12,053 nt of DNA from a virus (lineage: Duplodnaviria > Heunggongvirae > Uroviricota > Caudoviricetes): IMG/VR virus record IMGVR_UViG_2850808358_000011, one strand, 5' to 3'. The stretch's first letter is position 1. Each line of letters starts with the position of its first letter. The position numbers and the translations under genes are program-made. This document shows, piece after piece, positions 7,138 to 7,438 of this stretch. The notes under the pieces were generated by a model. The model worked only from the letters and a program-made list of their open reading frames with translations, ran no database searches and was not told where the DNA came from.

Positions 7138-7438
7138 GGGGGTGCGGAAACGGGTTACAAAGGTTACAAACAGAAAAATACATTATATATCAATGCATTA
7201 TAATACATTTATAAGGTTACAAACGGGTTACAACAGGGTTACATGTAACCTTTATGTAGTGGTTACTGTTGGTTACAGGTTAAATTTATAACTAATTGAT
7301 AATTAATCTGTTTTTGAGAGCTGTAACCTCGTGTAACCTTCTGTAACCTCAAAAAGGTTACAAGGAATATGCTTTAAAATCATATTGTTATGGCATATTT
7401 TAGGGGGTGTAACCTTTGTAACCCGTTTCCGCACCCCC
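7138..7438. repeat. Iteron-like array: about 14 copies of heptamer GGTTACA/TGTAACC bounded by perfect 31-bp inverted repeats; putative replication origin or protein-binding array
   Basis: Left arm GGGGGTGCGGAAACGGGTTACAAAGGTTACA (7138-7168) is the exact reverse complement of 7408-7438. Plus-strand heptamers at 7153, 7162, 7215, 7226, 7237, 7271, 7356 (variant GGTTACT at 7261); minus-orientation copies at 7244, 7322, 7332, 7342, 7408, 7417; central palindrome GGTTACATGTAACC at 7237-7250. Confidence 0.7.

Follow-up and report, generated by a model that had tools for sequence, protein, structure and literature searches.

A cluster of short repeats at positions 7134-7442 of the IMG/VR record IMGVR_UViG_2850808358_000011 can be read, with a probability that we put at roughly 0.8, as the vegetative replication origin of a P4-like satellite island. 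The whole stretch of DNA analyzed (12,053 nt; referred to below as the window) is part of a ~13-kb Escherichia coli island inserted between gcd and hpt, and judged from its sequence this island is a P4-like satellite, i.e., a phage-parasite island. The cluster is built of copies of the heptamer GGTTACA, which would act as iterons recognized by the C-terminal domain of a primase-helicase encoded upstream. All the computational tests that were run supported its interpretation as an origin, as had been suggested in a preliminary description of this DNA. That description placed the AT-rich part of the origin in the A-rich segment following the cluster (7441-7620); this part was not borne out, and the likely unwinding elements are instead the AT-rich spacers inside the array.

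Anatomy of the Repeat Array

The heptamer GGTTACA occurs 15 times in the window, against a chance expectation of 1.17 and a maximum of 4 in 200 shuffled sequences, and 13 of these copies fall within 7153-7423 (Table 1). A 14th copy in the array, GGTTACt, is located at 7261, and allowing one mismatch raises the number of sites to 15 (13 exact and one or two near copies), in agreement with the roughly 14 copies in both orientations reported earlier. The 14-bp palindrome and the exact 31-bp inverted repeats of the preliminary description were also confirmed. The palindrome (GGTTACATGTAACC, 7237-7250) results from a + site at 7237 abutting a - site at 7244, while the segments 7138-7168 and 7408-7438 are exact reverse complements of each other, a symmetry that a repeat search extended to 54 nt at 85%. 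The module has a fixed orientation pattern (++ / +++-++ / ---+ / --), the clusters on the left being mainly + and those on the right mainly -, and its 13-15 heptamers flank AT-rich spacers, as is the case in origins of the Staphylococcus aureus pathogenicity island (SaPI) type.

Among all 40-mers of the 12-kb window, the least stable one lies in spacer 1 of the array and the second least stable in spacer 2. Matches to the IHF consensus number three in the window, with 0.66 expected, and two of the three are found inside array spacers, one in spacer 1 (7188-7200) and the other in spacer 2 (minus strand, 7289-7301), mutually inverted. The segment 7441-7620 is A-rich on the + strand, as previously described (AT skew +0.22; GC 0.37), but it is not conserved, being largely replaced, with insertions, in NCTC9082 and CFSAN027346. 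On the minus strand, a hairpin resembling a terminator (7482-7470) falls within this segment. The conserved AT-rich DNA of the region is that of spacers 1 and 2 (GC 0.15 and 0.23).

Two other readings of the region were tried and rejected. As for a non-coding RNA, Rfam searches of the window (E<=1) gave no match in the array, all matches being confined to 1778-1985. As for a coding function, a protein-family scan gave no match in the array region, the 65-aa open reading frame (ORF) 7094-7291 not being itself scanned, and this ORF covers spacers that carry indels.

The Array Accompanies the Primase-Helicase Gene

Relatives were recovered by a primase profile search and by exact look-ups of primase proteins, and about 30 homologues (~31 loci) were compared. 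All profile loci with a primase identity of >=50% and enough downstream DNA carry the array; L128 and L150 end short of its expected position. The arrays of the profile loci contain 7-15 heptamers over 260-290 bp, with the same orientation pattern as in the window, and the conserved module has a length of ~270-310 bp, with 12-15 copies of the iteron. In five E. coli homologues the positions and orientations are kept, the heptamers being invariant and the flanking bases variable. Both ends of the module are marked by a boundary element formed by a G-run, 2-8 variable bases, and then CGGAAA or CGCAAA (7134-7152 and 7424-7442 in the window), which is also kept in L046, L047, L212, L214, L216, and L148/L149. 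These arms vary among lineages, yet the two arms of one origin are near-identical, with substitutions matched across both of them (e.g., GCGGAAAC/GTTTCCGC vs. GCGCAAAG/CTTTGCGC).

The distance from the primase stop codon to the array ranges from 185 to 1346 bp across relatives, and it is 185-400 bp in those lacking cargo (L139-L149, L212, L214, L216, L219, and L220). In the window, the primase-helicase gene stops at 5876, ~1.26 kb upstream of the array, in accordance with the 1.3 kb given in the preliminary description, because the cargo gene int2 is inserted between primase and array. The same gap is filled by an int2 gene in L137, L217, L218, and L221, by a small membrane ORF in L047/L138, by a P22-antirepressor-like (antirepressor-N) gene in L146, and by a terminase-N-like ORF in L152, and it is empty in L139-L149 (L146 apart) and in L216. 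The genes downstream of the array also differ between relatives. Since the array occurs without int2, the gap content varies, and int2 does not track the heptamer (see below), the array belongs with the primase.

The gap thus has the aspect of a cargo slot (5877-7133 in the window, 6733-7569 in L146, 6154-7100 in L152, and 2950-3190 in L047), and several of the slot genes resemble helper-manipulation genes. For P4-like elements, a hotspot located between the primase and an att site has been mentioned (bioRxiv 10.64898/2026.02.27.708500).

Heptamer and Primase C-Terminus Vary Together

The heptamer differs between lineages (GGTCACA, GGTAACA, GGTTACT, CGTTACA, CCTTACA, and ATTACA). The C-terminus of the primase conforms to P-[ED]-x-x-x-C-W-[IV]-F in all family members, with a variable triplet before the Cys, where the last beta-strand of the C-terminal domain begins in the model. 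Triplets of the form V[LIVF]K were found together with GGTTACA at 15 loci (the window, L001, L129, L130, L132, L133, L135, L049, L138, L139, L141, L143, L149, L152, and L216), and QVK with GGTTACA or GTTACA in L221. V[LV]R is accompanied by CGTTACA at six loci (L144, L146, L147, L148, L151, and L153), L220 having [C/T]GTTACA, and V[LI]E by CCTTACA in L154 and L214, one of them predicted before look-up. The remaining combinations were VQH with [C/T]ATTACA (L212 and L213), RLK with GGTTACT (L217), and TLK, TVK, or TVR with GGT[C/A]ACA (L131, L137, L218, and L219). Accordingly, a Thr at -3 goes with a base other than T at heptamer position 4 in 4/4 loci (L131, L137, L218, and L219), and in 0/27 of the others.

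Closely related pairs display the same behavior. The primases of L148 and L149 are 95.5% identical and in their last 60 residues differ essentially only in SKPDVLR vs. KRPEVIK, while ~9 iterons switch from C to G together; and the primases of L129 and L131 are 90% identical, with heptamers GGTTACA and GGTCACA, respectively. Predictions were also written down before five look-ups (P0031, P0040, P0038, P0025, and P0029), the contig of P0029 being too short. As predicted, the heptamers of P0031 and P0040 had C at position 4, that of P0038 lacked GG, and that of P0025 had GG; the heptamer CCTTACA, anticipated earlier for the VIE protein P0055, was found as well. The preliminary description had proposed comparing islands for co-variation of heptamer and primase, and the triplet was found to track the heptamer over the ~31 loci, one base call failing. 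Its suggestion that the site defines a replicon specificity of its own gains support from this co-variation. The association between patch and iteron is strong across these sequences, yet it does not amount to a simple one-residue-one-base code. Few residues probably fix the iteron specificity. More tentatively, with the odds somewhat against it, the three residues before C-W-[IV]-F might set heptamer bases 1-2 and 4, and possibly 7, as a readable specificity code.

The Primase-Helicase

The protein carries a CxxC...C Zn ribbon, a Toprim domain, a Walker A motif (GEPGTGKTT), and a Walker B motif. No match was obtained in a PDB sequence search, either for the primase-helicase or for its C-terminal domain, and Pfam did not detect DUF927, HTH_56, or P4-alpha-type helicase domains in the window protein by sequence. 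An AlphaFold2 model of residues 300-765 (predicted local distance difference test, pLDDT, 85) has a Cch-like fold, with two structures matching well above the rest. With the isolated C-terminal domain, Foldseek gave nothing significant; the winged-helix initiators RepA and RctB were among weak fold matches. As modelled, the protein is a Zn-ribbon/Toprim primase fused to a Cch/SaPIbov1-Rep-like helicase-initiator, and, as in initiators of the SaPI type, a Cch/Rep-type ATPase is followed by a predicted C-terminal winged-helix domain. In total, 1129 primase homologues were returned, from Escherichia, Salmonella, Yersinia, Providencia, Morganella, Xenorhabdus, Pectobacterium, and other genera. A search of PLSDB for plasmid forms of the replicon gave only four distant matches (37-42% identity) and was uninformative.

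Table 1. Features of the array and of the adjoining replication and integrase genes in the window.
Feature	Position	Strand	Description
Primase-helicase-initiator gene	3208-5876	+	Zn ribbon, Toprim, Walker A/B ATPase, predicted C-terminal winged-helix-like domain
Codons of C-terminal strand	5835-5864	+	KEVLK-CWIF; triplet V-L-K, proposed specificity patch
int2	5879-6880	+	333-aa P2/HP1-type tyrosine integrase; starts 2 nt after the primase stop
Exact GGTTACA	7153, 7162, 7215, 7226, 7237, 7271, 7356	+	
Exact GGTTACA	7244, 7322, 7332, 7342, 7408, 7417	-	
Left boundary arm	7134-7168	+	G-run, TGCGGAAAC, two direct iterons (7153/7162) with 9-bp spacing
Spacer 1	7169-7214		GC 0.15; least stable 40-mer of the window; candidate unwinding element; kept in homologues
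Iteron cluster 2	7215-7277		7215+, 7226+, 7237+, 7244-, 7261+ (GGTTACt), 7271+
Spacer 2	7278-7321		GC 0.23; second least stable 40-mer; near the dyad center (~7288) of the outer inverted repeat
Iteron cluster 3	7322-7362		7322-, 7332-, 7342- (10-bp spacing), 7356+
Spacer 3	7363-7407		GC 0.31
Right boundary arm	7408-7442	-	Iterons 7408-, 7417-, then GTTTCCGCA, C-run; mirror of the left arm

Weighing the Origin Against Other Explanations

Several observations weigh against the array being the origin. The gene of the presumed initiator is affected in the window by a 1-bp deletion near 3512 (TGTGG-GCCACTG vs. TGTGGAGCCACTG), which splits it into ORFs 3157-3519 and 3579-5876 and separates the Zn-ribbon part from the Toprim-helicase part. 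An otherwise identical intact version of 889 aa is known (P0009); the deletion could be an error of sequencing, or it could leave the window copy defective in replication. The origin in this genome could thus be an orphan, except if a related protein acts in trans or the sequence is wrong at this point. In some complete P2-like prophages, a distant relative (47-49% identity) serves as the replication gene and no array follows it, so the family does not always use the downstream-array layout, and the origin of these prophages must lie elsewhere. In the prophage relatives L208, L210, and L215 the triplets are TYY, TFR, and VFH, and the gene sits at the position of P2 gene A. As for the co-variation, a C predicted at heptamer position 1 from an Arg at -1 failed (P0031/L218 combines TVR with GGTCACA), and a correlation between linked features is partly expected from linkage and shared descent. 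Simple binding to the iterons does not account for the way in which the two boundary arms evolve in concert. They may be kept alike by gene conversion, by a second contact with protein, or by a role as symmetric starts of primers; the arms could be a second functional element, e.g., the places where the fused Toprim primase begins synthesis on each side, or a site at which some other portion of the protein docks. Finally, P4 needs two cis sites for its replication.

This last point bears on the alternative that the array, while being bound by the primase C-terminal domain, is an auxiliary site (crr-like, for copy-number control or handcuffing, or an autoregulatory operator) and that replication starts elsewhere. 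In P4 the cluster directly 3' of the alpha gene is crr, and the start site ori is 4.5 kb away. We consider this alternative unlikely for the island studied here: neither the window nor the complete island L001 has more than one cluster, the two segments of the window that melt most easily lie inside this cluster, and its dyad layout around AT-rich DNA matches that of SaPI origins, which are single sites.

The preliminary description had also named an integrase attP arm array and a packaging site as options, and neither of them was supported. That the array could be the attP of int2, with arm-type sites, is suggested by its neighborhood, since the order int2, non-coding region, ogr/Delta resembles the int-attP-ogr gene order of P2. 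Besides, int2 encodes a genuine P2/HP1-type integrase with intact catalytic residues (E=2.5e-95 against the P2 Int structure, PDB 5c6k) that shares 85% identity with its counterpart in a P88-like, helper-type peduovirus prophage, the arm-binding N-terminal region being the part most diverged from the phage enzyme. The distribution of the array and the missing co-variation led us to reject this explanation, to which we give almost no weight: the array is present without int2 in L046, L139-L149, L212, L214, L216, L219, and L220; three int2 alleles that are 42-57% identical in their N-terminal 60 aa flank identical GGTTACA arrays; and the int2 genes of L129 and L131 are 98% identical, whereas the heptamers are GGTTACA and GGTCACA. 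Moreover, the att region of a close relative among the phages lacks GGTTACA and instead carries repeats of TGTCCAT beside int (TGTCCAT is not enriched in the window), and islands integrated in the chromosome retain an uncut array. The integrase gene behaves as swappable cargo that does not track the heptamer, and the attP explanation fails because of it.

An equally remote explanation would be an invertible switch, in which the 31-bp repeats are crossover sites and the segment flips a promoter of the ogr/Delta late operon. Perfect inverted repeats do flank ~240 bp beside a tyrosine recombinase gene, and the arms evolve in concert. This was rejected because the orientation relative to the flanks never flips, being uniform in all the ~30 homologues; in addition, the structure exists without an adjacent recombinase, the segment is roughly dyad-symmetric, so that inversion changes little, and no strong promoter was found inside the array. 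A packaging (cos/pac) or capsid-assembly site used with a helper terminase would leave room for the fact that the packaging site of the island is unlocated, the P2/P4 cos 19-mer (GGCGAGGCGGGGAAAGCAC) having no match with up to three mismatches (<=3) in the window or in L001. We nevertheless regard such a role as very improbable: the site would have to match the helper terminase, yet near-identical satellites of one host differ in it (L129, GGTTACA; L131, GGTCACA), co-variation with the primase C-terminus would not be expected, and the layout is that of iteron origins.

Proposed Mechanism and Implications

Returning to the array as origin, a mechanism can be proposed by analogy. The C-terminal domains of the primase-helicase would dock on the iterons, and two hexamers would load themselves so as to flank an AT-rich spacer (7169-7214, 7278-7321, or both), which they would melt; loading on opposite sides is proposed because the iterons of the two sides point toward each other. 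Bending by IHF would possibly assist the melting of the spacer. The fused primase would then lay the first primers, and bidirectional theta replication would take place after excision of the island. The pair formed by iteron and patch would set the specificity of the replicon, in such a way that related satellites and helper phages would not cross-fire.

This interpretation would locate the origin for a large uncharacterized family of P4-like satellites and related elements, and would reclassify their initiator as a Toprim primase with a self-loading helicase of the Cch/SaPI-Rep type rather than the P4-alpha type. It names residues for direct mutant tests and points to a possible set of orthogonal replicons, and it would explain the 1.3-kb gap between gene and site as a cargo slot carrying helper-manipulating genes. 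Current ideas on origins are not overturned by it. If the specificity code were true, co-resident satellites and P2-like helpers would comprise many replicons orthogonal to one another, compact pairs of orthogonal origins and initiators could be engineered for enterobacteria, and Gram-negative bacteria would have a counterpart of the SaPI Rep system in which the primase is part of the initiator.

Island Setting and Neighboring Genes

Several hallmarks of P4-type elements were detected in the window: an AlpA-like gene, an Icd-like ORF (1683-2210) that overlaps the C4/isrK immunity RNAs (1778-1985), and an ogr/Delta zinc-finger gene (8008-8190). The Rfam scores in that segment were 74.7 bits for C4 antisense RNA and 52.1 bits for isrK, and the a1/b1 target family (c4-a1b1) gave a sub-threshold match (29.5 bits, with a gathering cut-off of 46.7). 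A MazEF pair precedes hpt in the island, and a separate P4-type integrase is encoded at its left end, beyond the window.

Other copies of int2 are located at 12877-13881 in L001, 6699-7694 in L137, 6683-7684 in L217, 6699-7688 in L218, and 6686-7666 in L221, and at least three int2 alleles, 42-59% identical, exist in otherwise near-identical E. coli islands. No attP for int2 was found, and the enzyme might act on the helper prophage instead of the island.

Upstream of ogr/Delta, the motif TGCACA is repeated three times in phase (TTTGCACAGAAGTGCACAAATTTGCACAA, 7622-7650) and followed by a T-run. The motif is kept in relatives (L001-L005, L047/L138, and L217), even where the DNA up to the array has been replaced, and probably serves the late regulator as an operator or promoter element. 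Further downstream there is a P2-family major capsid gene (9207-10619) with an N-terminal extension of ~180 aa, preceded by an uncharacterized ORF (8863-9348). P4-like satellites normally redirect the helper capsid protein by means of Sid/Psu, and an own capsid protein encoded by the element is unusual for one of them.

Comparison With Known Systems

A literature search returned no paper with GGTTACA together with iterons, and nothing describing the origin of this satellite family. The origin proposed here belongs to a familiar class, the iteron origins served by self-loading initiator helicases, in an uncharacterized family. When IMG/VR was scanned for GGTTACANNGGTTACA, many unrelated loci were returned. 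In L019 (6122-6418), L092 (5940-6234), and ~30 similar IMG/VR loci, 8-10 copies of GGTTACA were located directly 3' of genes for DUF927+HTH_56 (Cch-type) helicases, which are preceded by a CHC2 zinc-finger primase in a SaPI-like pri-rep-ori layout. The C-termini of those helicases have no similarity to the K-C-W motif, and because of this the common use of GGTTACA is probably a coincidence or an artefact of the search.

With the theta plasmids (pPS10 RepA, R6K pi, and pSC101) the array shares short initiator sites next to an AT-rich unwinding element and nearby IHF-consensus matches; their iterons are ~17-22 bp instead of 7 bp, and the island differs from them in the dyad symmetry of its array and in an initiator that is itself predicted to be helicase and primase. 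The int-attP-ogr region of P2 is similar in gene order and int2 is close to peduovirus integrases, but the array repeats are not those of the integrase, the phage att carrying other repeats.

P4 is the same type of element as the window island (C4/isrK RNA and the AlpA, Icd-like, and Delta/Ogr genes), and the position and architecture of its crr are close to those of the array. As annotated, crr lies directly 3' of alpha and holds 10 octamers in both orientations within 300 bp, with direct pairs spaced by 9 bp, the spacing of the 7153/7162 pair. The type 1 octamer iteron of P4 (TGTTCACC) has 0 copies in the window, where GGTTACA is found in its place, and the remark in the preliminary description that the heptamer differs from the P4 iteron was therefore right. 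P4 has ori plus crr, unlike the window and the complete island L001 with one cluster. From the work of Ziegelin et al. and Yeo et al., P4 alpha is said to be a multifunctional primase-helicase with a C-terminal origin-binding domain. BLASTP against it gave only short matches (Walker A, E=6e-4; Toprim, E=0.006): the two proteins share colinear Zn-ribbon, Toprim, and Walker A motifs only and are not orthologous, and the helicase of alpha is of the D5-like superfamily 3 (SF3) class while that of the window protein is of the Cch/MCM-like class. The earlier comparison with P4 alpha has to be corrected for the initiator and for the number of clusters.

The last system to be compared is the pri-rep-ori module of SaPIs and the Cch protein of the staphylococcal cassette chromosome mec (SCCmec), with SaPIbov1 Rep and the SaPI1/SaPI5 Reps as examples. 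SaPI Reps are self-loading initiator helicases whose C-terminal winged-helix domain binds 6-12 short iterons immediately downstream of rep, and these iterons surround a central AT-rich region, in opposite directions on its two sides (PMC9371898). SaPIs and the window island are both phage-satellite islands, and they have in common a hexameric self-loading helicase with a C-terminal DNA-binding domain (predicted in the window protein) and an origin just 3' of the gene with opposed short iterons around AT-rich DNA. The island differs in its Gram-negative host and P4-like backbone, in the Toprim-type primase fused in one chain of 889 aa, in having 13-15 copies of a 7-mer in four clusters with three AT-rich spacers, in the extra arms with a G-run and CGGAAA, and in the cargo slot between rep and ori. 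Its nearest known relative in mechanism and fold is thus SaPI pri-rep-ori, and in element type and position it is P4 crr/ori.

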